NCBI GenBank assembly: GCA_023953695.1
Contig: JAMLJG010000003.1
Location: 106,885-170,884, forward strand
Direction of reading: 5' to 3'
DNA: 64,000 nt
DNA from: Kiritimatiellia bacterium
GTDB lineage: Bacteria > Verrucomicrobiota > Kiritimatiellia > CAIVKH01
A model generated the notes under the pieces. The model saw only the letters and a program-made list of their open reading frames with translations. It did no database searches and was not told the DNA's origin. Positions 788-63,459 of this stretch are shown here, piece by piece (position 1 is the stretch's first letter; each line of letters starts with the position of its first letter). The position numbers and the translations under genes are program-made.

Positions 788-2857
788 ATGTTGAACGAAT
801 TGTATCCCAGTAGGCCTTGGCAGCCCGGCGCGCTCATCCTCCCTCCATGGAAAGCCGAGGGTGGGACGCATGTGGCTCCCTCTTGGCAACTCGGCGCGCA
901 GGCGGGCGTACTTTCCGTTCCGTTCGCGAAGTTTCACTGGAATCTCGAATGGGAAGCGAAGCACACAGTTCTCGTGTCGCCGCACGGGGTGTTCGAGCTG
1001 TCGGCCGATCCCCAAGAGCCGCTCCATTTTTGCGCCTTTTGCCCTGAACCGGGAATCCTCATCGGCGAGTCGAACGCCAGCCACACGCCCAACCTTCACA
1101 CCCCGGAAGGTCATGTGGTGGATCGCGAGGATGGCGAAGAATTGGAAACGGCCGATTCGCTGGTCCGACTCTATTGCCGCGAAAGCAATGGCCGCACATT
1201 CTTCGTCGTGGTCGTCCTGCACGATCAGGCTGGCGATCCCTCCGCGCTCCTCTCGCGCTATGCAGAGGTGGATCCGCTCGAATCACTGCGATCTGCGCTT
1301 GCCCCTTATCAATCTTTCGCTCAACGCCAAACGGGACTTGAGCACGATCAGGCGGACCGCCTCCAATCGCACGTCGCTGCGCTCATCTGCGGCCTGCGCA
1401 GCTCGCGTGATGGAGCCCGCCTCTTTGCGGCTCCCGATGAGTCGGGCAGATTTCAGACACGCCACCTCTACGAACTCGTTATCGCTTGGTCTGAAATCCG
1501 CATCGATTTTGCGCGCGCATTGCTGCACACGCTGCTCAATTTTCAACAGCCCGACGGCGCATTGCCGCGCGCGCTTGACGAACTGGGTTCTCCCGGAATC
1601 GAATCTTTGCACATCCCGCTTCTCGCACATTGTTTTGAGCAGGTTTGGCGGCAGGATCCCGATCGCGCGTGGTTTGATTATGCCGCACCTCGGGTGCAGC
1701 GGCACCTCGAGTTCATTGTCCAATCGTTGGATCCCGATCGAACCGGCCGCCCGCTCTGGCCTTCCCAACTCGACTCACTCGCGCCGGAACTTTTTGAGTC
1801 CGACCTCTACACCCCCGACCTCCCCGCCCTCCTCATCCACGAGATTTCAACGCTCGAAAAGATTGCCGATGCGATTGCCATCCGAAGCCTCAATTTGACC
1901 GATCTGCTGCAATACCGCGATTTGCTTTTGGCACAAATGCGGGAAGTCCTCTGGAGCGCCGAAAAGCAGAGCTTCACAGAGCGCTATGTGGATGATCGCC
2001 CACTGATGCGGCAGGCCATCAATACCCTTCTTCCGCTCATCTGCACAGAGTTGACTCACGACGAGGTCGGCGCGCTGACGAATCTCCTACTCAGCCGACA
2101 GCACTTCCTCGGGAGCACCGGCTTCATCGCGTGGATTCCGTGGGGCACCGTGGCCACTTTGCCTCCCGTTTGGCCGGTTCACCAACTCCTGCTTCTCGAA
2201 GCGCTCGAAGCGCGCCATGCCGTCACGGAAGTGGCAACCGTGCGCGGAATCCTCCTTGCCCATCCTCCAGCCGACACCGCCCTTGCTTGGGATGCACTGG
2301 CCATTCATCTCCTCGCCGTGCCATCCGGCAGCCGATTCAATGCGCGGATTATTTCGCCCGCTCTCCATTGGCTCAATCGCCATCGGCGCGCCACCTTCGC
2401 CACCGCCCTCGCCCTTTTTGCTCTCTTCAACGGCCTAGTCTTCCTCTACTCCTGCACCAAGACAACGCTAACCCCCCAGACGATCGAAACAACGGCAGGT
2501 TTGGCGCGACGCTACTACCAAGAGAAAAACTTTGAGGCATCAGAACAACTCCTGATGCGCATCATTGAAAGCAAGCAGCCCTACCCCACGGCCAACATGG
2601 AAATGGGCAACATCCAATATCGAATGGGGAATTTGACAGAGGCGGAACGCTTCTATCGGATCCCCTCCTCCACACCGCTGGTTCAGGCACAAATGCTCCA
2701 GAATCTCGCCGTCCTCCTCTACGAGCAAGGGCGTACAAATGAAGCCCTGGCCGCATGGAAACAAATTCGCGACGAGTTCTCAGTGCCCGCGCCCCAAGTG
2801 ACAGAACGAGCCAACACGGCGCTGAAACTGCTGGGGGAGATCGGTGCAGGCGAATGA
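788..2857 (+). CDS. Large protein with an N-terminal (alpha/alpha)6-toroid glycoside-hydrolase-like region, one predicted transmembrane helix and C-terminal TPR repeats
   Basis: The ORF track frame spans 419..2857. The likely start is ATG 788 (MLNELYPS...), which follows an AT-rich promoter-like stretch. A hydrophobic segment ATFATALALFALFNGLVFLY sits before the TPR-like C-terminus (YYQEKNFEASEQLL...EALAAWKQI). Confidence 0.45.
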   Translation: MLNELYPSRPWQPGALILPPWKAEGGTHVAPSWQLGAQAGVLSVPFAKFHWNLEWEAKHTVLVSPHGVFELSADPQEPLHFCAFCPEPGILIGESNASHTPNLHTPEGHVVDREDGEELETADSLVRLYCRESNGRTFFVVVVLHDQAGDPSALLSRYAEVDPLESLRSALAPYQSFAQRQTGLEHDQADRLQSHVAALICGLRSSRDGARLFAAPDESGRFQTRHLYELVIAWSEIRIDFARALLHTLLNFQQPDGALPRALDELGSPGIESLHIPLLAHCFEQVWRQDPDRAWFDYAAPRVQRHLEFIVQSLDPDRTGRPLWPSQLDSLAPELFESDLYTPDLPALLIHEISTLEKIADAIAIRSLNLTDLLQYRDLLLAQMREVLWSAEKQSFTERYVDDRPLMRQAINTLLPLICTELTHDEVGALTNLLLSRQHFLGSTGFIAWIPWGTVATLPPVWPVHQLLLLEALEARHAVTEVATVRGILLAHPPADTALAWDALAIHLLAVPSGSRFNARIISPALHWLNRHRRATFATALALFALFNGLVFLYSCTKTTLTPQTIETTAGLARRYYQEKNFEASEQLLMRIIESKQPYPTANMEMGNIQYRMGNLTEAERFYRIPSSTPLVQAQMLQNLAVLLYEQGRTNEALAAWKQIRDEFSVPAPQVTERANTALKLLGEIGAGE

Positions 2858-3103
2858 TCGCGGGACGCCCCAAAAAAAAGAGGGCGCGACGCGCCAAGGA
2901 GGTTGGGGTGAGAGGCCCCAATTGGATAACGCATCAACGCCCTCAAAAATGAATAACGGAACTACGCTACGCTTTATTTTGAACAATTCAAATTAATTTG
3001 CGCTCTCAATGAAAAGAATCGTCATTTTAGGAAACGTTGACGCCAAATCCTTGAAGTCTTACGGTGCACCCCGATTCTGATATTCACTACAAAAGGCCCC
3101 TCT

Positions 3104-3436
3104 ATGATTCGACACTACCTCCTTGTTGCCGCATCGCTGCTCGCCCTGCTCGGGACCAGTGCCTGCTTTCGACACGACAACCGGGTGATCCATGTGAACG
3201 TCCCGCAAATGACCTCGCCCGAATGCTATACGCTTATCCAGAACAAGCTCAAAGAGGTTGAAGGCATCACGAGTTCCAACCCCAATTTCGAAGATCACAC
3301 CATCGCCGTGGCCTACAACGCGCTGAAACTCGGCATCAAGAATGTCGAGTTCACCATTGCATCGGCTGGCTTTGATGCCAATGACACACCGGCCTCTGCC
3401 GAAGCGCGCGCTAAACTTCCCGAAGGCTGCCGGTAA
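3104..3436 (+). CDS. Small lipoprotein with a degenerate heavy-metal-associated (HMA)-like fold
   Basis: Signal peptide with lipobox LLGTSAC. The motif VNVPQMTSPECYTLIQNKLKEVEGI resembles an HMA betaalphabeta pattern, but only a single Cys is present. Confidence 0.35.
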   Translation: MIRHYLLVAASLLALLGTSACFRHDNRVIHVNVPQMTSPECYTLIQNKLKEVEGITSSNPNFEDHTIAVAYNALKLGIKNVEFTIASAGFDANDTPASAEARAKLPEGCR

Positions 3437-3444
3437 TCAAAATC

Positions 3445-4938
3445 ATGAAAATCATCAAGCTGAAGTCGGGCACACCCTTGCCGAAGGATGCCGCCCTGGC
3501 CATTCCCCTGTGGTCCGACGAACCATCGGCACGAAACACCCTGTTCTCCACCCTTCCCGACGGCCTTTGGAATGAAGTGGAGGGATGGATCAAACAGATT
3601 CGCTTCAAAGCGACAGAAGGCTCGTTTTCTCATGGGCGCGTTCTCCTGAAGGAACGCCTCTACGATGTCTTCCTGTTCGGCTGCGGTCCCGGCCATCAAG
3701 CACATGCGGGTATTCTGCGCCGAGCGGGCGGGCGTGCAGCAGTCGAGGCGCAGCGACTGGGCGTGTCCACCGTTGCTCCAGTTTTCCCAGAGCGTACCCT
3801 CACCACCTTTCCGAACAAATGGGTGCGCGCTTTCGCCATTGGTTTCTACGAGGGCACCTATCAACTTCGCCCGTCAAAAGATTCCACCTCCAAACCGCTC
3901 CAACTGGCGTTGCAAAGTAGCGCTCCAGCCGCTCTCTCTGAAGACCTCAAGTGGGGCATTTCCATCGGCAGTGCGATCAACAAAATACGCGATATCGCCA
4001 ACCAGCCCGGAAACCAGGCTCCCCCGCGCGTCATCGCGAATCACGCCCAGGCACTTGCGAAGGAACTCGGCATCTCCTGCTCAATCTGGGATCGAGCAGA
4101 GCTGAAAAAACAGCGCTGCCACGCCATTCTCGCAGTCGGCCAGGGTAGCTCAGAAGAGCCTCGTCTCATCCGCTTGACCTATCCCGGTCGCAAGAAAAAT
4201 CTCCGGCCTCTCGTCGTGGTCGGAAAAACAATCACGTTCGACACAGGCGGCATTTCCCTCAAACCCTCCAAGAACATGGAGTGGATGAAGTTCGATAAAT
4301 GCGGGGGCATGACCGTCCTCGCCTTCATGGCAATAGTCGCATCGGTCATCAAACCCGATCGCCCGGTGATCGGAATCCTCACCTCGGCGGAAAATATGCC
4401 GAGCGGAACCGCAACCCGCCCCGGCGATATCATTCAAAGTCGCAGCGGGAAGACCATCGAGGTCCTCAACACGGATGCGGAAGGACGCCTCGTCCTGGCT
4501 GATGCCCTGGACATTGCATCGGAACTCAAACCTCATTGCATCATTGATTTGGCCACTCTGACTGGTGCGGCATCGGTCGCATTGGGTCGGCCAGCCTCGC
4601 CCATCATGGCGAATGACAACAACCTTCTCAAGAGCCTCCAAGAGGCCGGCGATGCCGTTGGCGATCGCGTGTGGCCTTTGCCGCTCTTTCCCGACTATGA
4701 GCGCATGCTCAACTCGCCCTTCGCCGATCTGAAAAACATCGGCGACGGCAGTGCGGGCACCATCATCGGCGGCACCTTCCTCAAGTTCTTCGTACGCCCA
4801 GATATTCCCTGGGCTCACATTGACCTCACCTCCGCATGGGAAGAACGAGCCACCTCGCATGGACCCGCTGGTGCAACACTCTTTGGCGCAGCGCTCCTTG
4901 CTCAATGGCTCGAATCCATCACCACCAAGACACCATGA
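3445..4938 (+). CDS. pepA: Leucyl aminopeptidase (M17 family)
   Basis: Carries the M17 signature NTDAEGRLVLADAL and is 497 aa. Confidence 0.9.
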   Translation: MKIIKLKSGTPLPKDAALAIPLWSDEPSARNTLFSTLPDGLWNEVEGWIKQIRFKATEGSFSHGRVLLKERLYDVFLFGCGPGHQAHAGILRRAGGRAAVEAQRLGVSTVAPVFPERTLTTFPNKWVRAFAIGFYEGTYQLRPSKDSTSKPLQLALQSSAPAALSEDLKWGISIGSAINKIRDIANQPGNQAPPRVIANHAQALAKELGISCSIWDRAELKKQRCHAILAVGQGSSEEPRLIRLTYPGRKKNLRPLVVVGKTITFDTGGISLKPSKNMEWMKFDKCGGMTVLAFMAIVASVIKPDRPVIGILTSAENMPSGTATRPGDIIQSRSGKTIEVLNTDAEGRLVLADALDIASELKPHCIIDLATLTGAASVALGRPASPIMANDNNLLKSLQEAGDAVGDRVWPLPLFPDYERMLNSPFADLKNIGDGSAGTIIGGTFLKFFVRPDIPWAHIDLTSAWEERATSHGPAGATLFGAALLAQWLESITTKTP

Positions 4939-24389: not shown

Positions 24390-25159
24390 TTAACAATTCC
24401 GCGTTCGGACGATCGAATGAAGCGCACCAAGTGTTGCACTTCAGACGTTTGAGGGACTTCCGCCTCAATTCGCGCGAGTGCATCGCGCGTTCCCAACTCA
24501 CTGCGATAGAGCAGCCGGTGTGCGAGCTTGAGAGCCTTTTGCGATTCTTCCGAGACGCCCGCCCGCGTCAGGCCCACTGAATTGAGGCCGGGGACGCGCA
24601 GAGGGTTTCCATCTGCCATTACGAAGGGCGGAACATCCTGGACGACTTTCGCGCATCCACCGATGATACAATTCCGCCCAAGACGCACAAACTGATGCAC
24701 CGCACTCAATCCGCCGAGAATGACCCGATCCTCAACCGTCACGTGCCCCGCAAGCGTTCCCACATTGGCAATAATTACATGATTGCCCACTACACAATCG
24801 TGAGCGATGTGCGCATAGGCCATGATGTGGCAATGGGAGCCGACACGCGTGACATCTCCATCGGCGGTTGCCGCATTGATGGTGACGGATTCGCGAATCG
24901 TTGTGTTGTCGCCAATGGAAACACCCGGGCGCCCCCCCTTATACTTGAGGTCCTGCGTTTGCAGACCCACGCTCGCAAAGGGAAACACCGTGCATCCCGC
25001 TCCGAGCTGTGTGAAGCCGTCAACGACAACGTGAGAGATGAGACGGGTCTTATCCCCAAGTGTTACATCGGGGCCAACGAAACAGAACGGGCCGATAACA
25101 ACTTGATCTCCGAGTTTGGCATTCGGCGAAACGATTGCAGTTGGATGGATTTCAGACAT
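24386..25159 (-). CDS. lpxA: Acyl-ACP--UDP-N-acetylglucosamine O-acyltransferase
   Basis: Left-handed beta-helix hexapeptide repeats with the LpxA N-terminus MSEIHPTAIVSPNAKLG and a C-terminal helical domain. Confidence 0.9.
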   Translation of the reverse strand: MSEIHPTAIVSPNAKLGDQVVIGPFCFVGPDVTLGDKTRLISHVVVDGFTQLGAGCTVFPFASVGLQTQDLKYKGGRPGVSIGDNTTIRESVTINAATADGDVTRVGSHCHIMAYAHIAHDCVVGNHVIIANVGTLAGHVTVEDRVILGGLSAVHQFVRLGRNCIIGGCAKVVQDVPPFVMADGNPLRVPGLNSVGLTRAGVSEESQKALKLAHRLLYRSELGTRDALARIEAEVPQTSEVQHLVRFIRSSERGIVK

Positions 25160-53954: not shown

Positions 53955-55472
53955 CTAACCCTGCAAGGTCATCAAGAACTCGGCATTGCTCTTGGTCTTC
54001 TTCAGGCGATTCACAATCAGCTCCATCGCCTCAACCGCAGGCACGCCATTCAAAGCCTTGCGCAGAATCCATATCTTGGCCAGCTCGTCGGGATGGAGCA
54101 AGAGCTCTTCCTTACGCGTGCCCGATTTTTCCACATTGATTGCGGGGAATATCCGTTTATCAACCAAGTGGCGGTCCAGCGCCAACTCCATGTTGCCCGT
54201 GCCTTTGAATTCTTCGAAAATGACTTCGTCCATGCGACTGCCCGTATCCACGAGCGCCGTCGCAACAATCGTCAGACTGCCGCCGCCCTCGATATTGCGC
54301 GCTGCGCCAAAAAAGCGTTTCGGCTTGTGAAGCGCATTGGCGTCCACGCCGCCTGACAGGATCTTCCCGCTGTGAGGCGCAATGGTGTTGTAGGCGCGGG
54401 CCAAGCGGGTGATGCTGTCCAAAAGGATGATCACATCGCGGCCGCACTCCACCATGCGCTTCGCCACTTCGATAACGATCTCAGCGACCTGAACATGGCG
54501 CTCCGGTGGCTCATCGAAAGTTGAGCTCAACACCTGCGCCTTCGTGTTTCGCTCCATGTCCGTCACTTCTTCAGGTCGCTCATCAATCAGCAGGACGATC
54601 AGATGCGCGTCGGGATGATTGGCTGAAATGCTGTTGGCAATTTTCTGCAAAAGCACCGTCTTTCCCGTGCGCGGTGGCGCCACAATCAAACCGCGCTGGC
54701 CAAATCCGATCGGCGTCAAAATATCCATCACGCGCATGGAAACTTCATCCTGCTTCGTTTCAAGATTGATGCGGCGATCCGGGAACAGCGGAGTCAGGTT
54801 TTCGAACGGAACTTTGGACCGCTGTTTTTCAGGAGGGGCGCCGTTGATATGATCCACCTTCTGCAGGGCAAAGAAGCGCTCCTTCTCCTTCGGCGAACGA
54901 ATCTCCCCCTCGACATAGTCGCCCGTCCGAAGCGCAAAACGGCGAATTTGCGACGGCGAGACATAGAGATCTTCGGGACACGGCAGATAGTTGTTCAGCG
55001 GCGAGCGGAGAAAGCCAAACCCATCGGGAAGAATCTCGAGCACGCCTCGGCCGAACATCTGCCCGCCCAATCGTGCGTTGGCTCGGAGGATCTCGAAAAT
55101 CAATTCATGCTTGCGCAGTGCGCCCAGCTCAACCAGCCCATAACTATCCGCCACCGTCTTGATTTCAGGCACGGAAAGCGTCTGCAACTCGAACAGCTTG
55201 AGGAGTCGCGCCTCACCCTGCGGCCGGGGCGCTGGCGGCAATTCACCCACATTGCCATCCGCATTCGGATTCATCTCGGGCAAAGCACCCGGCGCGCCTG
55301 CGACATTTCCCGACTCGCCAGTCGGCTGTTCGTCGAAATCAGCGCCAGCGGGCGGCGACCAGGAATCCTGCTGCATATTCGGGCCATTGCGGCGCCCGCC
55401 ATGATGCCGATGGTGACGTCCCGAACGGCGTCCGCGACGATGCCTCATATTATTCTGTTGTTCATCCGCCAT
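53955..55472 (-). CDS. rho: Transcription termination factor Rho with an Arg/Gly/His-rich N-terminal extension
   Basis: Rho N-terminal and CSD-like regions, then the RecA-type ATPase ([14 protein letters not shown]) and canonical C-terminus. About 100 extra N-terminal residues of low complexity. Confidence 0.9.
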
Positions 55473-56076
55473 GATCTCTGCTCCTTTTCACAAATTGATT
55501 CCAACTCTCCAAGACTGTCGCTCGCAGGGCCTCGCGCGATCCGTCATTTTGAATCACCACATCAGCCCGCTTCACCTTTTCTTTCAACGACCACTGTGCG
55601 CGACGACGCTGTTCAATATGCTCCGAACTCCAGCCGCGTTCCCGAAGGCGCTCATTCACAACCTCATCCGATGCCGCCACACACCAAATAGAGTCCCACC
55701 CCTCCGCTAACCCCGCCTCATAGAGCAGAGGGATCAGCGCAGCGCTGGGCCCGGACGACCTCTTCTCCTCGCGCCAATCGCAAATGACGCTCCAGATTCG
55801 CGGGTGCAAAATGGCTTCCAGCGCCACCCTCATTTTCTCATCGGCGAAAACATGCGCCGCAATCCTTTTGCGATCCAAGTCGCCCTGGCTGTTCACAACG
55901 CCAGCGCCAAACAGGCTCAACACCGCGTTGCGCGCATCGCCATCGCACTTCAAGAGATCATGCGACACCGCGTCTGCATCAAGAATTTCCACACCCAACT
56001 CTGCCAAGATGCGCCCTACCTCACTCTTTCCACAGCCCACTCCACCCGTCACCGCAAGTGCTGGAAACCTGTTCAC
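55462..56076 (-). CDS. coaE: Dephospho-CoA kinase
   Basis: Walker [15 protein letters not shown] and the CoaE fold. Confidence 0.85.
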
Positions 56077-58100
56077 CGCAGCGCGCGCTCCCCTTGAAAT
56101 CCCTCGGCCTGGAGTGTTCCCGCCACCCGCAATATCTCCACGGCCCGCGGCTGACGCGGAAAAGACTCCAACGCCGCGGCCGCAAATTGTGAAGCCGCCT
56201 TCAAATCGCCGCGCTCCAACGCCGCTTCCGCCCGCTTCACATCCTGGCCCGCCCTCACTTCATCGGCCGGCGAGATAATTCGATACGCCGAATATTTCAT
56301 ATTGCGCCAGAGCGGAACAAACCAAGTGGTGTCATCGGGATGAAACTCAAACCCTCGAGCCGCTGCATGGTCTGGGGGATTCAGCGCATTCACAAAATAG
56401 CGCATCTGGAGCTCGGGATGAACCGAGGAGAACTCCCCAAACGCATAAACATAATAGCGCGCCCCATGGGCAACCGCCCAATCGCGAAATGACTTCTCGT
56501 CCTTCAAGAACAACTCTTCTCCATATTCCTTCACGCGCTGTCGAAGCGCGGTATTTTCAAACTTGGGATGCAGAACAATCGCGCACTTCCCGTATGCAGC
56601 GATGGACGCGCTAGTCCCGAAATTTGCCAGCACCGCCTCCGGCGCCACATGGCGACTGAGCCAAGCTGTCAGTTCACTGATTTCCTTAAAATACACATTA
56701 ACGCGGCCCCACTGCTCTGGCCGGCGCAAGGTGTGCACACCCTCAACCAAAAGCCCTGCTCCCAACGCGAGCCCAACCAGAATCTTCATCCCGCGCCGCG
56801 GCGACGGGAGGAGAGACCAGCCCACACCGATCAACATGCAACTAAAGAGAGAAAGATAAACGTGGAAGCGCGTAAAGAGCCAGAAGGCTGCCACGGAGAC
56901 CGCCCACGCGAACAACAGCTCGCCGATTCGAAAGTCGAATCCTCTCCTTGCGTGAACCAACGCTAGGAGAACTGCGGGAATTGTCAATAGCAATAGCGTA
57001 GGAAAAAGCATCGCAGCCAATCGCCAGTCCGTGGAGTTCAAAGCCGGAACCCATAAAATCCGTTGTGCAAAAGTCAGGCGCGCAGGATCGGCGGGTTTCA
57101 TGTTGAAATAGCGCAACTTCGCCCACAACAGCTCGGCAAAATGCCCATAGGCGCCCGACGCAGGGAGGAGAAAGTGAGCACCCCAAACAGCAAGAAATCC
57201 GAAGACCACAATCCCGAGGCGCACGCGGACCCCATTCCACCCCCCCCCCGGTTTATCGAGCCAACACCGAGCTATTCTCAGCAAAACAATCGCGTGGGCC
57301 AACCCCATGGTCGGTGAAAGCAGCCATCCTTGTTCGCGATGATAGGGATTGAACAGCCCCACGGCGATCAAGGCTGCGTATTCTAACCACCACCCTTCTC
57401 GGATCAGCGATGGGCGAACCGAAGCGCGTACCTCGCGCCACACCCGAAGGAGAAGGCGGAGCGCGATGTAAAACTGAACCATATCCCATGAACAAAGAGC
57501 CCACCCCAAAAGCAGCGCTGCGAGAGATTGCCCCCCCACGCGAAGCCACCTCGATCGAACCTCAGGACTCCAGACGAGGAGAGCCCAGTGCCCAATGAGA
57601 AACGGCAGTGCAAAATTCTCGTGCGAAAGCTCCTGCCCAGTTGAACGAATCACGCTCGATAGCGAGATCGCGTAAAAGAGGGATCCCCACACCGCTGCGC
57701 CAAGATTTCTGCGCCATCCATAGAGGCCCAGTGCGAGAAACGGAATCCCCAGCGAAAACCACCCCGCCTCCAGAATGCGAACTCGCGTTGGAACCGGAAT
57801 ATGCGACGGAAAATACTTCGCTAAAGCCGCATAAAAATACTCCGCACCGAGTGTATAGGTCGTTCGAGGGTCAATCCCTTCCGGAAACTGCACCATCGCG
57901 TCGTGCGCCTGAATGCGTCCCGTGTCATAGACCATTTTCACCCGCCGATAATGGAGCGCGCTTTCAAGGGTGAACGGCAACTCGTCGCCAAAACGCTTAT
58001 ATTGAGCCTCCAAAATTGCCATCCGCGCCCCCATCGCGAGGGTGAACAGAAATAGGAGGCCGAGAGCCAATAGGACGATGCGTTGAACGGTCGAGCTCAT
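56073..58100 (-). CDS. Polytopic membrane protein, possibly a GT-C-fold glycosyltransferase, with a C-terminal soluble domain
   Basis: More than 10 hydrophobic helices and an early DE-containing periplasmic loop (GDELPFTLESALHYRR). The assignment is weak. Confidence 0.35.
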   Translation of the reverse strand: MSSTVQRIVLLALGLLFLFTLAMGARMAILEAQYKRFGDELPFTLESALHYRRVKMVYDTGRIQAHDAMVQFPEGIDPRTTYTLGAEYFYAALAKYFPSHIPVPTRVRILEAGWFSLGIPFLALGLYGWRRNLGAAVWGSLFYAISLSSVIRSTGQELSHENFALPFLIGHWALLVWSPEVRSRWLRVGGQSLAALLLGWALCSWDMVQFYIALRLLLRVWREVRASVRPSLIREGWWLEYAALIAVGLFNPYHREQGWLLSPTMGLAHAIVLLRIARCWLDKPGGGWNGVRVRLGIVVFGFLAVWGAHFLLPASGAYGHFAELLWAKLRYFNMKPADPARLTFAQRILWVPALNSTDWRLAAMLFPTLLLLTIPAVLLALVHARRGFDFRIGELLFAWAVSVAAFWLFTRFHVYLSLFSCMLIGVGWSLLPSPRRGMKILVGLALGAGLLVEGVHTLRRPEQWGRVNVYFKEISELTAWLSRHVAPEAVLANFGTSASIAAYGKCAIVLHPKFENTALRQRVKEYGEELFLKDEKSFRDWAVAHGARYYVYAFGEFSSVHPELQMRYFVNALNPPDHAAARGFEFHPDDTTWFVPLWRNMKYSAYRIISPADEVRAGQDVKRAEAALERGDLKAASQFAAAALESFPRQPRAVEILRVAGTLQAEGFQGERALR
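57240..57249. repeat. Homopolymeric tract: 10 consecutive C on the + strand, which is G10 on the coding strand of the 56073..58100 gene (encodes PGGGW)
   Basis: Counted directly from the sequence (ccac + ccccccccc + g). Confidence 0.9.
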
Positions 58101-58130
58101 TGAAGTCTAATCCAAGGAATGCACTCTTCT

Positions 58131-59012
58131 TTACAAAAGCTCCATCTGTGTGGGCGCGACGGCCTCCGGCACTAAAGATGACATTCCGAGGGGAACCAAC
58201 AATGCGCGAAGCTCCGCTATGCGCGGAGGGCGAACGACCAGGTCGCTTAGCTCAGGCATGGGTGTTACAGCCGTATCCAGTGTCGTCATCGCAAGATTGC
58301 GCGCCACAATATCGCGATGCGCCAGCAATGATTCACGGAGTTTATCGCTCTTCACTTCATTCAAATGGCTCCACATATCCTCAAGCGATCCAAATTGCTG
58401 CAGCAGTTTGGACGCTGTCTTGGGACCGATGCCAGGCACACCCGGGATATTGTCCACAGTATCACCTGTCAATGCCAGCCATGCAGGGATCAATCTCGGT
58501 GGAACACCTGTCTTTTCCTCAATCGCGACTTCATCCAGAGCGGGCGCATCTTTCACAGGCGCCACGAGGTGAATCGCTGGATCAACGAGTTGGAAAAGGT
58601 CTTTGTCATTCGTCGCAATGACAGCGGAGAGTCCGCGCTCCGACGCCTTCTTGGCTAACGTCGCAAGGACATCGTCCGCCTCCTGCCCCGCCACCCGAAT
58701 TCGGGGAATTGATGACGCATCAAGATAGGCATCCAAGAGGGGAAGCTGTTTTGCAAGCTCCTCGGGCATTTCCGCGCGCTGAGCCTTGTATTCCGGAAGG
58801 AGATTCAATCGTGTTGCAGGCAAGCCGCCGTCAAAAACCACGGCGATGTGCGATGGCGCGAAGCGATCAACCATGTGCCGCTGTGATTTCATGAAGCCCA
58901 TCAGCGCATTTGTCGGCGTCCCATCTTTCGACGAGAGCGGTGGAATGGCATGAAAAGCGCGATAAGCCAGCGACATCGCGTCAATAAGAAGGAGGCATGG
59001 AGTGTGAGACAT
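58131..59012 (-). CDS. 5'-3' exonuclease / flap endonuclease (Pol I N-terminal-domain-like)
   Basis: MSHTPCLLLIDAMSLAYRAFHA (PIN-like 5' nuclease N-terminus), a GIPGVPGIGPKTA helix-hairpin-helix motif and no polymerase domain. Confidence 0.85.
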   Translation of the reverse strand: MSHTPCLLLIDAMSLAYRAFHAIPPLSSKDGTPTNALMGFMKSQRHMVDRFAPSHIAVVFDGGLPATRLNLLPEYKAQRAEMPEELAKQLPLLDAYLDASSIPRIRVAGQEADDVLATLAKKASERGLSAVIATNDKDLFQLVDPAIHLVAPVKDAPALDEVAIEEKTGVPPRLIPAWLALTGDTVDNIPGVPGIGPKTASKLLQQFGSLEDMWSHLNEVKSDKLRESLLAHRDIVARNLAMTTLDTAVTPMPELSDLVVRPPRIAELRALLVPLGMSSLVPEAVAPTQMELL

Positions 59013-59184
59013 GAATTATGATTGCCCGGCAAACGAGCTATACTCAACTCCGCGCGCCGAGCATGAGGGCACCATCCCTCAGTGCTGTTCTCGTCCGAGC
59101 AATGTGATCTGACGAGCCAAAACGCCTTGACCCCATGCACAACGTGAAGCGAGCGGTCGCTCGCTCCGCGTTGCAGAGACTGGA

Positions 59185-62100
59185 CTAAGGCGCTGCTGTA
59201 GCTGTGGCTTCGGCCGCAGTCAGGGCCTCGCCGCGATTGAGCGGCTTGCCCGCCGGATCCACCAAACGCGCGGTCACGAAAATCAATAGATTCTTCTTCT
59301 TGCTGTATTCGCCTTCCGAACGGAAGAGCCGTCCGATCAGCGGAATATCGCCCAGCCCGGGAATCTTGTCCTTGACCTTGATCAAGTCCTCACGAATGAG
59401 GCCGCCCATGACGACGGTCTGGCCATCCCAGATCACAATACTGGTCGTCACGTTGCGACTGGCGAAGACGGGCTGCGGGATGTTGAATGTGAAGGTCTGA
59501 TCCGGAGTAAAGAGCTCATCAATCGCACCCGTGCTGCGCGGAATCGTGATGGTTGAACCATACTGAATCCAATCCACCAACTCTGACACTTCCGGAGCCA
59601 TCACGAGGTCAATCGTGTAGCCATCAGGTCCGACTGTAGGCGTCACGTTGAGGATAACCCCCGTCTCACGCTTTTCAAAGGTACCCGGCGTCACTACGGG
59701 TGGCGTCGTGATTCGGCCCGTATCATTAAATTGAGGCTGGGTCGTATCAAACTCGGTGGGATAGATGATCTCGCGGACCACTTGAATCTGCGCATTCACA
59801 CCGCTGCGCGTGGTCACGCGCGGAGCCGATAGGAGGTCTGTGCCACCATGTTGCGAGAGCGCCTGAACAACAATCGTCACCTCGGGATTCGTTAGGACGC
59901 TCGCAAAGGTCGCAATACCACCCAATGGGGTGATATTGGAGCCGAATTGTTGGCGCGTCGCCGGCTCGAGCACACCCGTCGTCGTATTGCGCCCAAAGAA
60001 CCGGAGGCCCTTTGTCATACCCTCGCTGTCGGCATTCATTTGCACGCGTTCGGCGCTTCCCGCTCCGAACGGGCCTGTTCGCTGTGCGATTTCCCAATTG
60101 TCCGTTAGAAGCCACTGGAAGCCCAACTCTTCCAGATCATCCTGCGAAATCTCAACAAAGCGCGCCTCGATTTCAACCTGGTTGGGAATGACGTTGAGAC
60201 GCGCAAGAATCTTCTCAAAGGTTTCGAGATTTTCGGGTGTGTTCGCGACGATCAATTGGCTGATCGCGGAATTATAGGCAATTGAGGTCCCCGCAGGGAA
60301 TGGAACACCTGCTTTCTCAAAGAAGTCTTTCACATCGCTCTTCTTGAACGAGGCGGATTTGGCGCCAAGCTCAACAAAGCCAGCCTGCTGGGGAGCCTCC
60401 TCCTTCTCGACTATGACATCAAGAATTGACGGCTGCACAGGGTAGAGGCGCGTGAGAACGCGACCCGAAACGACGCCCTCAGGCGTGATCATCACCGCAT
60501 TTTCTTCCAAGCGATACTTCAGGCGCGCAACCTCCGTGATGTATTTGATGGCATCAAGAAGAGAAATGCGGCGAAGGTTGAGTGTAATGGTAGGGATAGA
60601 AGAATCTACGGACGGAGCCGAAAAGGACTGCGCTGGCGGCGCAGAGAAATCGGAGCCGAAGTCGCCGAATCCGAAGTCTGCGGCGGGAGCAGCAGCCGGT
60701 TGCGCAGCAGGAGCCGATACGGCCGAGCCGCCCGGCACATTGAGGTTGAGGATGATATTGACACCGCTCTTCTCCGGATCGCCGGCGATGCTTGCCTCAA
60801 CCAAGAAATTCACGACATCCGTGATATTTGCCTGTCGGAACTCAATTGATGGAATGATGATCTTCTCCATCTTCTCCTGTAACTTTTGCGCGGATGACTG
60901 CGTCTCAACTGCACCGCGATTGACGACGGCCTGGGGTGCGGTGGCATCGCTGCGAACCGGACTGTTCCACCCATCGCGAACTTTCTGAATCAGCTCAGCC
61001 GCCGTCGCCTCGCGCTCCTGCGAGCGGATTTTGTAGCGCACTTCGTCAATTCGGCGAAGGAAGCGCATCGCCTCGACATTGTACTCATCCTGTAGAAGGA
61101 CCCGCTCGAAAATGGCTTCCGCCGAGTTGTAATCGCGCACGTCAAAGAACTGACGCCCTTCGCGAATCAATTCAGCGATGGATTTTTGCTGCGCAACAAT
61201 TTCGGGTCGCTTGGCAACGGGAACGGGTCGAGATTTGAGGTCGGCCTCGCGCTTTTCTGCTGCGGTGAGCTTTTTCTCGAACTGGCGGACATCTGCTCCG
61301 GCAGCTTGTGCACGGACAAATGACTCTCTAGCGCCCTTCAACTCATTGCGTGAAAGTTGCTGCTCTGCGCGGCCCAAATAGGATTGCCCCAGCGCTGCAG
61401 AAATCTCATCAAGACGGGCCTTGTTCGCGGGACGCGCAGGCAATTTCTCTTGCGCGCTGAGCAACGCCGGAATGGCTACATCAAAATTGCCAGCATGTGC
61501 AGCCGCCACGCCCTTGTCGGCGGCGGCCTTGGCTTCGACCTCGCTCGCCTGCCGGCGAACTTCTTCCTGCTGGGCAACCAGTGCGGGACTCAAGCCGGAC
61601 GCATTGGGATCCAGCGGAGCCACAGCGCCAGTTGCTTCCTCGACCGGAACCGCCTCAGGCTCGATTTCGGACTCGGAGTCGGGAGTGGCAGAAACACTCG
61701 ATTCGTCCGTCGCGTCACCGAAATCGCCAAAGATATCTAATGCGTTCGTGACATTGGCGTCGATGGAAACATCGCCCGTCTCCGCCTGTACCTCTGGTTC
61801 GGGAGCGGGCTGCTGTTCCGAAGCAACCGGCTCGGAATCGCCAAAGAAATCATCAGATGCTGTGTCCTCAATTGGGCTCGGCGCAGGCACTTCATCAGAG
61901 GCGGGAGCCACAGACTCTTCGGGCGCGGGTGTAACCTGTTCAGCACCTTCGCTTGCCTGTGCATCGTCTGGGCCTGGGTCCAGACCAAAATCATCCGTGG
62001 CCACCGAGACAACGTCGGTGGTTGAATCAGATTCCTGCGCCTCTGGCTGATTCGGCTCCACAATTGAGTCCGAGGCAGCATCGACAGATTCAGCGATCGC

Positions 62101-62322
62101 CTCTACGCCCGAATCAACTGAGTCAGCAGCTTCTTCCACAGCATCGGTAGCAGCCTCTGCCACAGGTTCCACCGCCGCACCTGCCTCCGTGACCAGCGTC
62201 GTTGGAGACGGAAGTGACAAGTCGTCAAGCAACGAGTCAAAGTCTTGTCCTCGCGCAACGGTAAACGCCACTAAGCTAACGGCGACCAGCAATCCTGTAT
62301 AGCGGCTCTTGATGACGCTCAT
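59185..62322 (-). CDS. Secretin-family outer-membrane channel protein (PilQ/GspD-like, 1045 aa) with a long acidic low-complexity N-terminal region and a TPR-like segment
   Basis: C-terminal secretin domain (VVMGGLIREDLIKVKDKIPGLGDIPLIGRLFRSEG...LLIFVTARLV). The N-terminal roughly 250 aa are D/E/S/A/P-rich. The RBS is AAGGAG. Confidence 0.75.
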   Translation of the reverse strand: MSVIKSRYTGLLVAVSLVAFTVARGQDFDSLLDDLSLPSPTTLVTEAGAAVEPVAEAATDAVEEAADSVDSGVEAIAESVDAASDSIVEPNQPEAQESDSTTDVVSVATDDFGLDPGPDDAQASEGAEQVTPAPEESVAPASDEVPAPSPIEDTASDDFFGDSEPVASEQQPAPEPEVQAETGDVSIDANVTNALDIFGDFGDATDESSVSATPDSESEIEPEAVPVEEATGAVAPLDPNASGLSPALVAQQEEVRRQASEVEAKAAADKGVAAAHAGNFDVAIPALLSAQEKLPARPANKARLDEISAALGQSYLGRAEQQLSRNELKGARESFVRAQAAGADVRQFEKKLTAAEKREADLKSRPVPVAKRPEIVAQQKSIAELIREGRQFFDVRDYNSAEAIFERVLLQDEYNVEAMRFLRRIDEVRYKIRSQEREATAAELIQKVRDGWNSPVRSDATAPQAVVNRGAVETQSSAQKLQEKMEKIIIPSIEFRQANITDVVNFLVEASIAGDPEKSGVNIILNLNVPGGSAVSAPAAQPAAAPAADFGFGDFGSDFSAPPAQSFSAPSVDSSIPTITLNLRRISLLDAIKYITEVARLKYRLEENAVMITPEGVVSGRVLTRLYPVQPSILDVIVEKEEAPQQAGFVELGAKSASFKKSDVKDFFEKAGVPFPAGTSIAYNSAISQLIVANTPENLETFEKILARLNVIPNQVEIEARFVEISQDDLEELGFQWLLTDNWEIAQRTGPFGAGSAERVQMNADSEGMTKGLRFFGRNTTTGVLEPATRQQFGSNITPLGGIATFASVLTNPEVTIVVQALSQHGGTDLLSAPRVTTRSGVNAQIQVVREIIYPTEFDTTQPQFNDTGRITTPPVVTPGTFEKRETGVILNVTPTVGPDGYTIDLVMAPEVSELVDWIQYGSTITIPRSTGAIDELFTPDQTFTFNIPQPVFASRNVTTSIVIWDGQTVVMGGLIREDLIKVKDKIPGLGDIPLIGRLFRSEGEYSKKKNLLIFVTARLVDPAGKPLNRGEALTAAEATATAAP

Positions 62323-62409: not shown

Positions 62410-63459
62410 TCAAGGAAAGGACGGAGCGACCGGCTCCGGGGTCGCCGAAGAGCCACCCTGCAGCGCAGTCCGTTCCGCTGTCGTAAGCAGCCCAACGCTC
62501 GTTTGCTTACCCGTTTGCTGTTCGCGTATTACGACACGATCCTCCCTGATGTCAACGACTTTATACACGAGATCCTTTAGGCGAACATCGTCGCGGATCT
62601 GAACTCTAAACCGGCTGCCGTCTACGAGGAAAATGAGTAGCGCCGTGCGCGCATCCTGATCAATGACTCGACCCTGGATCAAACGAATGACACTGCCGTC
62701 TTTCTCCAGCGTGAGCGTGGGGCCTTCCGTCGCCTTATCGTCGTACGAAAGCACATTGAAGCCATCCACAACTTCTCCGACACGAGCAAAATAGGTTCTT
62801 TCGAGCGTCCGAAGGTTGAGCTGATATCGGTCGCCATCGGGCAACCGCGATATGCCGAGGAAACGAAGTTTGAAGGGATTGACAACCGTCCTCACAAGGC
62901 GAAGCTTTGCCGCGGGCGGCGGGAAGGATGCGGGATCGCGGGGGTCCGTGCCCGCTTGATATTCTTCCAAGTTTGAATAGCCATCGCCATCCAAATCCGC
63001 GCGCGCATCTGTAGGATCGGCCGGATTCAAGCCTATTTGCGTTTCGGCTTTGTCGGGAATGCCATCGCCATCACTATCAGGATCATAATCCACAGATGGC
63101 TGCTCTGTTCCGCTGAATGGATCCACAGTAGCCTTGAACGGAATTGGGGCACCACTGGGAATGCTTGCGACCCGTTCCTCGCCCACCATAAAGCTCCGGT
63201 TGACCAATTGGACCTGGAAGGGATTGGATAAGCGAGAAAGCAAATTACTTACCAGCGATACATCCAGCGGCTTGGCGGTAGCACCCTCCATAGAGGTTTC
63301 CTGGCTGTAACGCGCATCAAACTCTTTGCGCTCCCCTCCTATCTTGAGGACCAAAAGCAAAGCGGAAAGCAGCAAAACTACGAGTATGACCACGAGAGCA
63401 AGCTTGTCGTAGTTCTGCTCGAACCAAGAACCGCCGGGTCTCTTTGCACTGCCCATCAC
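62410..63459 (-). CDS. Hypothetical membrane-anchored protein with thrombospondin-type-3-like calcium-binding repeats (DxDGDG); possible secretin/pilus assembly partner
   Basis: N-terminal TM (LALVVILVVLLLSALLLVL) and repeats DPDSDGDGIPDKAE / DLDGDGYSNLEEY. Lies immediately upstream of the secretin gene. Confidence 0.4.
   Translation of the reverse strand: MMGSAKRPGGSWFEQNYDKLALVVILVVLLLSALLLVLKIGGERKEFDARYSQETSMEGATAKPLDVSLVSNLLSRLSNPFQVQLVNRSFMVGEERVASIPSGAPIPFKATVDPFSGTEQPSVDYDPDSDGDGIPDKAETQIGLNPADPTDARADLDGDGYSNLEEYQAGTDPRDPASFPPPAAKLRLVRTVVNPFKLRFLGISRLPDGDRYQLNLRTLERTYFARVGEVVDGFNVLSYDDKATEGPTLTLEKDGSVIRLIQGRVIDQDARTALLIFLVDGSRFRVQIRDDVRLKDLVYKVVDIREDRVVIREQQTGKQTSVGLLTTAERTALQGGSSATPEPVAPSFP

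Follow-up and report, generated by a model that had tools for sequence, protein, structure and literature searches.

Does a run of ten G residues within the coding sequence of a polytopic membrane protein act as a phase-variation switch, does it reflect an error of sequencing or assembly, or is it an incidental feature of the nucleotide sequence? This question is raised by a 64-kb stretch of DNA from an uncultured environmental Kiritimatiellia genome (the window, hereafter), in which the run is the longest homopolymer and is located in a predicted glycosyltransferase gene.

Position of the G10 run and consequences of slippage

The run corresponds to nucleotides 852-861 of an open reading frame of 675 codons, and it reads CCCCCCCCCC on the plus strand of the window, that is, G10 on the coding (minus) strand:

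57240..57249, minus strand: G10 homopolymer (C10 on the plus strand), identical in five further assemblies (L001-L005)
56073..58100, minus strand: 675-aa DPY19/STT3-like GT-C membrane glycosyltransferase, assigned by Pfam, profile search, alignment, AF2, and Foldseek

The codons across the run (GAT AAA CCG GGG GGG GGG TGG AAT) encode D282, K283, P284, G285, G286, G287, and W288, and so on; the third base of P284 (CCG) and the codons of G285-G287 form the run, and W288 (TGG) follows it. Both the location and coding strand of the run and the Pro-Gly-Gly-Gly-Trp peptide proposed in the original prediction are thus confirmed. A change of tract length by one nucleotide leads to an early stop in either direction, with a product of 333 aa for G9 (-1) and 419 aa for G11 (+1) instead of the full-length 675 aa. 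The loss of the C-terminal half in both slipped products is what a contingency locus would be expected to produce. The frame given by G10 is collinear from end to end with homologs of 650-690 aa, and most of the invariant residues of the glycosyltransferase are encoded downstream of the run.

Length of the run across assemblies

Exactly ten G residues, in frame, are found in five further assemblies, which were generated from other datasets with other pipelines (NCBI MAGs, JGI, and Logan) and were obtained by exact-protein look-up, a procedure that favors in-frame copies. The datasets carrying this allele include SRR13860396, SRR29758277, JGI 3300010051, GCA_024102575.1, and GCA_046128175.1. 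One of the five sequences, L003, is a JGI contig with the G10 allele that was recovered via the protein look-up. Together with the window, the six sequences represent four haplotypes (the window; L001/L004; L003; L002/L005), all of them G10 and ON, and there is no tract-length polymorphism among these consensus assemblies, in which minority length variants are invisible. The products predicted for G7, G8, G9, G11, G12, and G13 have no match in a collection of 15 billion proteins, and the same is true for four candidate C-terminal open reading frames; both off-frame tails have no match in 5.8 billion protein clusters. The 90% identity cluster of the glycosyltransferase has only four members, none of which is changed at the run. 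Scans for the allele at the DNA level, with a variable-length gap or with a fixed flank plus G6, returned nothing from the metagenome_contigs and genome_contigs collections, which evidently lack the lineage.

These data bear on the possibility that the true run is of another length or is interrupted and that the open frame is accidental. Several sequencing platforms are prone to errors in homopolymers, and in the related MAG L016 (GCA_023953735.1) a 1-nt deletion splits the gene at another G run. However, this deletion coincides exactly with a site that differs between lineages (G7C vs. G5TTC) and lies at the junction of a mosaic consensus, which points to strain mixing and does not involve the G10 run; for the same reason, we rejected natural slippage as the origin of the split gene. 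Moreover, the identical run recurs in five further assemblies from other datasets, and the G10 frame maintains collinearity with more than 100 homologs, including their highly conserved C-terminal half. An artifact is therefore largely refuted and, in our assessment, barely credible. The ten-G run is real, its assembled length and reading frame are correct, and the gene is ON; the concern of the original prediction that an indel error may affect the frame is not borne out.

A DPY19/STT3-like glycosyltransferase encoded in a conserved gene order

The membrane glycosyltransferase assignment proposed from the sequence is corroborated by several searches. The Pfam Dpy19 family (PF10034) matches residues 438-606 only, with 29.5 bits vs. 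a cutoff of 27.2, and nearly all listed homologs carry a precomputed PF10034 assignment. NCBIfam has no family for this protein. The alignment profile matches the sequence of the C. elegans DPY-19 structure (7zlg_A, E = 7e-9). The AF2 model (pLDDT 87.4, pTM 0.87) has its best Foldseek match in 7zlh_A (E = 3e-14, TM 0.71/0.73), with STT3 close behind. The protein is predicted to span the membrane with 13 TM helices; its C-terminal domain is predicted to be periplasmic, and its C-terminal tail is TPR-like. In the HMM alignment, the invariant residues R152 and R411 correspond to Arg211 and Arg471 of CeDPY19, which contact Dol-P-Man at the donor phosphate (PMC10154233), and the bacterial enzyme presumably uses a polyprenyl-phosphate-sugar donor. 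The invariant residues E46 (in the FTLES motif) and D67 fall in the predicted EL1 and are only candidates for the position of the catalytic Glu71 of CeDPY19.

With DPY19 (C. elegans DPY-19, PDB 7ZLG-7ZLJ; PF10034; GT-C superfamily), the bacterial enzyme thus shares a Pfam score above the gathering threshold, the aligned donor-contacting arginines, the best fold match, and, in the AF2 model, the 13-TM topology, in which a long EL5 follows TM9 and the C-terminal domain is external. Unlike the tryptophan C-mannosyltransferases of this family, it is bacterial, with an identity of only 13-14%, and it carries the additional TPR-like tail; furthermore, the STT3/AglB oligosaccharyltransferases fit its fold almost equally well. 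DPY19 carries out Trp C-mannosylation in WxxW/C sequons, and the bacterial enzyme is likened to it by sequence and predicted fold. No bacterial DPY19 homolog is described in PMC10154233 or PMC12990085, and we found no characterized bacterial counterpart of the enzyme in this DPY19 literature.

The following genes flank the glycosyltransferase gene:

59185..62322, minus strand: 1045-aa secretin-domain protein, upstream, in conserved order (gene calls)
58131..59012, minus strand: 5'-3' exonuclease, immediately upstream (gene calls, conserved order)
55462..56076, minus strand: coaE, dephospho-CoA kinase (gene calls, Pfam)
53955..55472, minus strand: rho, transcription termination factor with an N-terminal extension, next downstream (gene calls, conserved order)

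The order secretin - 5'-3' exonuclease - glycosyltransferase - coaE - rho is retained in 80 out of 80 species-level relatives, at 38-72% protein identity, and coaE adjoins the gene downstream wherever the sequence of a relative extends far enough. Translation of coaE from a GTG at the first candidate codon (56076-56074) would overlap the TGA of the glycosyltransferase gene by 4 nt; some gene callers place the coaE start downstream of this codon. The universal presence with identical neighbors suggests that the glycosyltransferase is a core gene. Since it lies syntenically upstream of coaE and rho, with which it may be co-transcribed, an OFF state may be costly, which would argue against a contingency locus. 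The mismatch-repair genes mutS and mutL, which bear on likely slippage rates, are not among the ten large open reading frames of the window that were checked.

Divergence of the TM8-TM9 linker

The run encodes part of the linker between TM8 and TM9, which is hypervariable in both sequence and length (alignment columns 301-330). In the AF2 model, residues 282-287 form a coil between helices 263-281 and 288-311, with a mean pLDDT of 64 for residues 281-290. Hydrophobic segments flank a K/R-rich loop at the linker, and the six linker residues (282-287) are likely on the cytoplasmic side. The linker sequence appears weakly constrained, and for this reason Pro-Gly-Gly-Gly is probably tolerated there.

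A sister lineage, represented by 12 assemblies and having 96.1-96.6% nucleotide identity with the window lineage over the 6-8 kb compared, carries TCGGAGGGTGTG at the site of the run, with the codons GAT AGA TCG GAG GGT GTG TGG. No indels separate the two alleles, whose codons align one to one, and we therefore rejected a compensated double frameshift as the origin of the divergent patch. The lineages differ at both G-run sites of the gene, with GGGGGGG in the window vs. GGGGGTT in the sister at one of them, and GGGGGGGGGG vs. GAGGGTGTG at the other:

57229..57253, minus strand: patch of dense divergence (25 nt) encoding the TM8-TM9 linker, with 8 substitutions vs. the sister lineage (locus positions 3848-3872)
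57531..57537, minus strand: second lineage-specific G run (G7; gene nucleotides 564-570), GGGGGTT in the sister lineage

The patch accounts for six amino acid changes within residues 283-291, so that 6 of the 29 amino acid differences from the sister protein are concentrated in nine residues (simulated P about 9e-5). The spectrum of substitutions separating the two lineages is symmetrical and their GC content is equal; we therefore rejected a general bias toward G-run extension in the window lineage, as only the two runs in the glycosyltransferase gene differ in this way. Outgroups (at most 72% identity), compared to infer the ancestral state of the site, are unalignable and of different length in the TM8-TM9 loop.

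Gly-Gly-Gly is present at the run position in none of the 33 aligned homologs, and no G/C run of at least 8 is found in the TM8-TM9 linker of the 80 species-level loci; the nearest such run in the relatives is located about 30 residues downstream of the linker, in L032. Sixteen species of another ortholog clade share the conserved peptide KWMGGG but have drifting Gly codons for it, and 4 of these 16 species have G9-G10 at this site with all reading frames intact. Judging from the codons, these runs come and go by synonymous drift.

The original prediction named two observations that would speak against a switch, namely a single length in all reads and an interrupted tract in relatives, and the latter is what we find in the closest relatives, which carry TCGGAGGGTGTG. 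However, 56% of the phase-variable homology groups analyzed with PhasomeIt include non-variable homologs, some of them with interrupted tracts (PMC6321876), and therefore the interrupted sister tract alone does not exclude phase variation.

G/C runs expected by chance

G10 is the only G/C tract of at least 8 in the window. The next-longest G/C runs are two of 7, one of which is in the same glycosyltransferase gene, so that two of the three G/C runs of at least 7 fall in this 2-kb gene. In 100 dinucleotide-preserving shuffles of the window, G10/C10 runs occur with a mean of 0.14 per shuffle and at least once in 13 of them; the iid expectation is about 0.4 runs. Among the 80 related loci, 1.29 Mb in total, there are seven G/C runs of at least 10, i.e., about 5 per Mb or 0.3 per 64 kb; one of these seven is a C50, which we take to be an artifact. 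One G10 per 64 kb is within the chance expectation; with regard to a phasome, a genome-wide excess of long tracts that usually lie in surface-structure genes, this count covers the 64-kb window.

The codon usage of the run is unusual. All three codons of G285-G287 are GGG, which accounts for just 19% of the Gly codons in the window, and the other seven Gly-Gly-Gly tripeptides in the window have mixed codons, which indicates that the run is a nucleotide-level feature. In the 80 species-level relatives, the ortholog is about two-fold enriched for G/C runs of at least 8 (11 of 41, P = 0.017, uncorrected). Four of these 11 runs are at one conserved site, leaving eight distinct sites, and we treat the enrichment as unproven.

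Origin of the run and alternative explanations

We propose that the G10 run is very probably an incidental, lineage-specific homopolymer in a weakly constrained linker of a core glycosyltransferase. The run and the interrupted sequence of the sister lineage differ by point substitutions only, and the nucleotides would dictate the linker peptide rather than the reverse. As with G10 tracts in general, slippage should be more frequent here than in ordinary sequence, and the run is probably slippage-prone. Slipped alleles would be null, with the loss of EL5, TM10-13, the conserved Arg411, and the periplasmic domain, and could be polar on coaE and rho. Such OFF alleles would presumably be removed by purifying selection and not used as a reversible switch.

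One competing explanation, and the claim of the original prediction, is a genuine contingency locus, where G10 slips to G9 or G11 frequently and reversibly toggles the DPY19-like glycosyltransferase, yielding subpopulations with different envelope or protein glycosylation, e.g., to evade phages or grazers. With ten G residues, the tract falls among the lengths accepted for poly-G phase variation and exceeds the cutoff of PhasomeIt, which calls phase-variable genes at G/C tracts of 7 or more (PMC6321876). The truncated off-frame products, the all-GGG codon choice, the second run of G7, the mild enrichment of G/C runs in orthologs, and the membership of membrane glycosyltransferases in a gene class typical of phase-variable loci are also in line with a switch. 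However, the invariance of length and ON state among the six allele sequences, the failure of off-frame products to appear in the protein collections searched, the interruption of the tract in the sister lineage and its lack in the other homologs examined, its location in a hypervariable linker, the universal and syntenic presence of the gene directly ahead of coaE (with a possible stop-start overlap) and of rho, and the lack of any other G/C tract of at least 8 in the window all argue against it. Our literature search retrieved no report of phase variation in Kiritimatiellae. Thus, we regard a contingency locus as unlikely, and the switch reading as unsupported rather than strictly refuted. 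The full form of this scenario, with a working poly-G switch in a free-living Kiritimatiellia that toggles a bacterial DPY19-like enzyme glycosylating proteins or glycans and encoded ahead of coaE and rho, is very unlikely; if true, OFF variants of such a core-gene switch would also modulate the downstream essential genes.

A further possibility is that selection has shaped the loop, either as diversifying selection on the TM8-TM9 linker or through an ancestral long tract that G-to-T and G-to-A interruptions stabilized in the sister lineage. The density of change is consistent with this possibility, with 8 substitutions in 25 nt and 6 amino acid changes in 9 residues despite the 96.6% identity of the two lineages elsewhere, and so are the G/T changes of the sister at both G-run sites of the gene. 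However, the outgroups, unalignable in the loop, give no direction of change, the overall substitution spectrum is symmetrical, and the family-wide variation in length and sequence of the linker fits relaxed constraint; we consider selection on the loop highly improbable.

The incidental homopolymer thus remains our preferred explanation: the run is physically real and gives no sign of a functional element, and annotation as a phase-variable locus, a frameshift, or a pseudogene site would be unwarranted. Caution is advisable in similar cases, as GC-rich environmental genomes carry G/C runs of at least 10 at about 5 per Mb. Because runs appear and disappear by drift, tract length alone poorly predicts phase variation outside the host-adapted genera used for calibration. 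The carrier gene is more interesting than the run, being a clade-universal DPY19/STT3-like GT-C enzyme in a locked gene order.

Comparison with known systems

The locus resembles the poly-G/C contingency loci of Campylobacter, Helicobacter, Neisseria, and Haemophilus in having a G run of at least 9 inside the reading frame of a membrane glycosyltransferase, where a slip of +1 or -1 leads by frameshift to a truncated product. Unlike these loci, it shows no tract-length polymorphism among assemblies, its tract is not shared by the closest relatives, and long tracts are not in excess within the 64 kb examined. Moreover, the contingency loci of these genera include accessory genes for LOS, capsule, and flagellin modification, whereas here the run is in a gene of conserved synteny and probable core function, adjacent to coaE and rho, and in an uncultured environmental Kiritimatiellia MAG. 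A second comparison is provided by incidental runs in the Gly-rich motifs encoded by GC-rich genomes, where they may arise from synonymous drift, such as the G9-G10 runs in 4 of the 16 KWMGGG orthologs; runs of this kind occur in related genomes at the frequency of about 5 per Mb given above. Unlike these runs of synonymous drift, the Gly-Gly-Gly peptide of the present gene is unconserved, and its run would have arisen by non-synonymous changes in a variable linker.

Position, Frame, and Frequency of the G10 Run

The homopolymer at window positions 57240–57249 reads CCCCCCCCCC on the forward strand and constitutes, on the minus strand, a run of ten G (G10) within the 675-aa ORF 56073..58100, which encodes a membrane glycosyltransferase of the GT-C type. 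The run occupies nucleotides 852–861 of the gene (codons GAT AAA CCG GGG GGG GGG TGG AAT) and specifies the peptide D282 K283 P284 G285 G286 G287 W288; the coordinates, strand, and peptide given in the original prediction, which had regarded the run as a candidate phase-variation switch, were all correct upon re-reading of the sequence. With ten G the ORF is full length, and more than 100 homologues, most of them of 650–690 aa, are collinear with it; the majority of the family-invariant residues in the alignment lie downstream of the run. Therefore the assembled G10 is the in-frame length, which settles the frame that had been flagged for verification. A change of 1 nt in either direction causes an early stop: the predicted products of the shortened (G9) and lengthened (G11) tracts comprise 333 and 419 aa, respectively, instead of 675 aa, end in an off-frame tail, and lack the second half of the protein.

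The G10 run is the longest homopolymer of the window, where two C7 runs, at 24932 and 57531, are the only other G/C runs of at least 7 nt. The one at 57531 is inside the GT-C gene, and this 2-kb gene holds two of the three such runs in 64 kb. Dinucleotide-preserving shuffles of the window contain on average 0.14 G10/C10 runs, with at least one in 13 of 100 shuffles, and the iid model gives an expected count of ~0.4. Across 80 related loci (1.29 Mb in total) we found seven G/C runs of at least 10 nt, i.e., ~5 per Mb or ~0.3 per 64 kb; one of the seven is a C50 homopolymer close to the end of a related contig (L084, position 12877), which probably arose as an error of assembly or sequencing. The G10 run in the window is in no excess over chance.

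Features of the window in and around the GT-C gene
57531–57537, minus strand (gene nucleotides 564–570): second lineage-specific G run, G7 (GTG GGG GGG CAA); GGGGGTT in the sister lineage
53955–62322, minus strand: conserved cluster of secretin (1045 aa), exonuclease, GT-C gene, coaE, and rho
53955–55472, minus strand: rho, with a ~100-residue Arg/His/Gly-rich low-complexity N-terminal extension
62410–63459, minus strand: 349-aa ORF just upstream of secretin, with a bacterial TSP3 repeat (Pfam PF18884, E=3e-10)

Identity of the GT-C Protein and Location of the Run

The GT-C protein (MCO5044247.1/MCO6400340.1, labelled 'Verrucomicrobia bacterium' or 'Kiritimatiellia bacterium' depending on the source) matches the Pfam family Dpy19 (PF10034) at residues 438–606 with 29.5 bits (cutoff 27.2), and has a weak TPR match at its C-terminus; a search of NCBIfam returned no family. 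A profile of 33 homologues matches the sequence of the Caenorhabditis elegans DPY-19 cryo-EM structure 7zlg (E=7e-9). The top PDB match of the AlphaFold2 model, built on the family alignment (mean pLDDT 87.4, pTM 0.87), is CeDPY19 7zlh (E=3e-14, TM 0.71/0.73), closely followed by the STT3 and AglB oligosaccharyltransferases. From these Pfam, profile, and fold matches, the protein is identified as a DPY19/STT3-like GT-C membrane glycosyltransferase, which upholds its earlier label 'glycosyltransferase-like'. The invariant residues E46 (in FTLES) and D67, both in EL1, are candidate catalytic acids.

In the model, residues 282–287 (DKPGGG) are the sole non-helical residues between helices 263–281 and 288–311, and the mean pLDDT of residues 281–290 (64) is well under that of the adjoining blocks. 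Helix 288–311 is followed by a long loop with short helices (312–368). In CeDPY19, EL5 joins TM9 to TM10 (PMC10154233); taking the long loop as the EL5 equivalent, the two helices correspond to TM8 and TM9. The loop encoded by the G10 run would then be the TM8–TM9 linker, and we infer a cytoplasmic orientation, with which the K/R-rich loop flanked by hydrophobic segments in the hydropathy scan is consistent. No other stretch of the family alignment varies as much in length and sequence as this loop, and Gly-Gly-Gly at the linker position is absent from all other homologues in the 33-homologue alignment. Outgroups are unalignable here, therefore neither the window allele nor that of the sister lineage can be assigned as ancestral.

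Conserved Gene Neighbourhood

The same-strand order secretin – 5′-3′ exonuclease – GT-C gene – coaE – rho is found, where the contig reaches, in all 80 species-level relatives (38–72% protein identity; Kiritimatiellia, Lentisphaerae, or Verrucomicrobia by label). The coaE gene adjoins the GT-C gene in 77 of these loci, rho is at most 2.5 kb away in 75, and the exonuclease is directly upstream in all 65 loci whose contigs extend far enough in that direction. In the window there is a 4-nt overlap between the TGA stop of the GT-C gene and the first candidate GTG start of coaE, although some gene callers set this start further downstream; the rho start also differs between callers (473 vs. 505 aa by record). 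By its conserved order, the GT-C gene looks like a core member of a conserved cluster rather than like an accessory contingency gene. Early termination ~1 kb before coaE and rho could have polar effects on both. Such linkage of a membrane glycosyltransferase to housekeeping genes is unusually rigid. The TSP3 (thrombospondin type 3) repeat encoded upstream of secretin differs from the thrombospondin type 1 repeats that are the substrates of animal DPY19.

Tract Length in Related Strains and Search for Length Variants

Contigs with the window allele were retrieved by exact-protein look-up, which favours in-frame copies. All five further contigs (two NCBI MAGs, one JGI metagenome, and two Logan assemblies) carry an identical G10, and together with the window they represent four haplotypes (window, L001/L004, L003, and L002/L005) that are 4–43 substitutions apart over 8 kb. 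L002/L005 differ from the window by 43 substitutions, 35 of them in the first ~1 kb of the aligned part of the secretin gene (36 within the first 1230 nt, positions 5–1230, the secretin N-terminal part at window ~59870–61100); this cluster points to either recombination in this patch or hypervariability of the acidic N-terminal region of the secretin. In the sister lineage (12 assemblies, 96.1–96.6% nucleotide identity across the 6–8 kb compared), the site reads GAT AGA TCG GAG GGT GTG TGG AGT GGG ACC (D-R-S-E-G-V-W), i.e., the tract is interrupted without any indel relative to the window. This is the comparison of tract length in related strains that the original prediction had called for. 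The linker is a divergence hotspot, since the 25 nt around the run contain eight inter-lineage substitutions, and residues 283–291 account for 6 of the 29 inter-lineage amino-acid differences (simulated P ~9e-5).

Because the exact-protein look-up favours in-frame copies, frameshifted (OFF) copies were searched for directly. Neither the predicted G7, G8, G9, G11, G12, and G13 products nor four candidate C-terminal ORFs occur in a collection of 15 billion proteins, and the two off-frame tails, joined into one query, matched no protein in a homology search of 5.8 billion clusters. None of the four members of the 90% cluster of the GT-C protein is altered at the run. In the JGI metagenome and GTDB genome collections, DNA scans detected no copy of the allele, and so add nothing on tract length. 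The survey of tract length covers assemblies, whose consensus sequences would not show minority variants within a sample.

Among the relatives, 11 G/C runs of at least 8 nt are inside the orthologue and 30 outside, an apparent ~2-fold enrichment (uncorrected P=0.017), but 4 of the 11 runs share one common site. All the orthologue ORFs with such runs are intact. At the shared site, the peptide KWMGGG is kept in 16 species of another clade, whereas the codons for its Gly residues are free to drift (GGC GGG GGC, GGG GGA GGG, GGC GGC GGC, and others), reaching G9 or G10 in four species (L057 4846, L065 1068, L068 10315, and L081 1377). Given this drift and the intact ORFs, long G runs come and go incidentally in this gene family and are tolerated in frame. 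In a related MAG, L016 (GCA_023953735.1, JAMLJF010000003.1, ~2384–4410), a 1-nt deletion breaks the orthologue into ORFs of 231 + 469 aa; it lies at the G7/G5TT site rather than at G10. This contig alternates window-like and sister-like blocks, and the deletion is exactly at a junction between them, a pattern suggestive less of biological slippage than of a consensus made chimeric by co-occurring strains; a recombinant is the alternative.

Phase-Variation Switch or Incidental Homopolymer

A run such as G10 probably slips more readily than sequence does on average. It exceeds the threshold for calling poly-G phase variation (at least 7; PhasomeIt, PMC6321876), and the interrupted sister allele alone does not refute a switch, since 56% of phase-variable homology groups also contain non-variable homologues, some with interrupted tracts (PMC6321876). 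The codon usage is likewise suggestive, as G285–G287 are all GGG, a codon used for only 19% of Gly in the window, and the seven other Gly-Gly-Gly tripeptides have mixed codons; in addition, the same gene carries a second lineage-specific run, G7. However, these hints are outweighed by the lack of length polymorphism among assemblies and protein collections, the lack of tract conservation in relatives, the location of the run within a linker, and the core-gene setting, and we consider the proposed switch improbable. The ten-G homopolymer itself is real and correctly assembled: the suspected indel, and with it an assembly artefact, is very unlikely, as ten G keep the ORF in frame and the same length recurs in five further contigs. 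Thus, we propose that the G10 run is most likely incidental, a homopolymer specific to this lineage in an unconstrained, presumably cytoplasmic, linker of a core DPY19-like GT-C glycosyltransferase.

Comparison with DPY19 Enzymes

The universally syntenic bacterial DPY19/STT3-like enzyme is a more interesting lead than the G10 run. Its homologues are labelled by NCBI/GTDB as Kiritimatiellia, Kiritimatiellae, Lentisphaerae, or Verrucomicrobia MAGs, and we found no description of a bacterial DPY19 homologue in the DPY19 papers searched for mention of bacteria. In the profile alignment, the family-invariant R152 and R411 align with Arg211 and Arg471 of C. elegans DPY-19, which contact the donor phosph(on)ate (Bloch et al., PMC10154233). 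The bacterial protein thus appears to keep the equivalents of the donor-phosphate arginines of CeDPY19, and has a TPR-like C-terminal tail.
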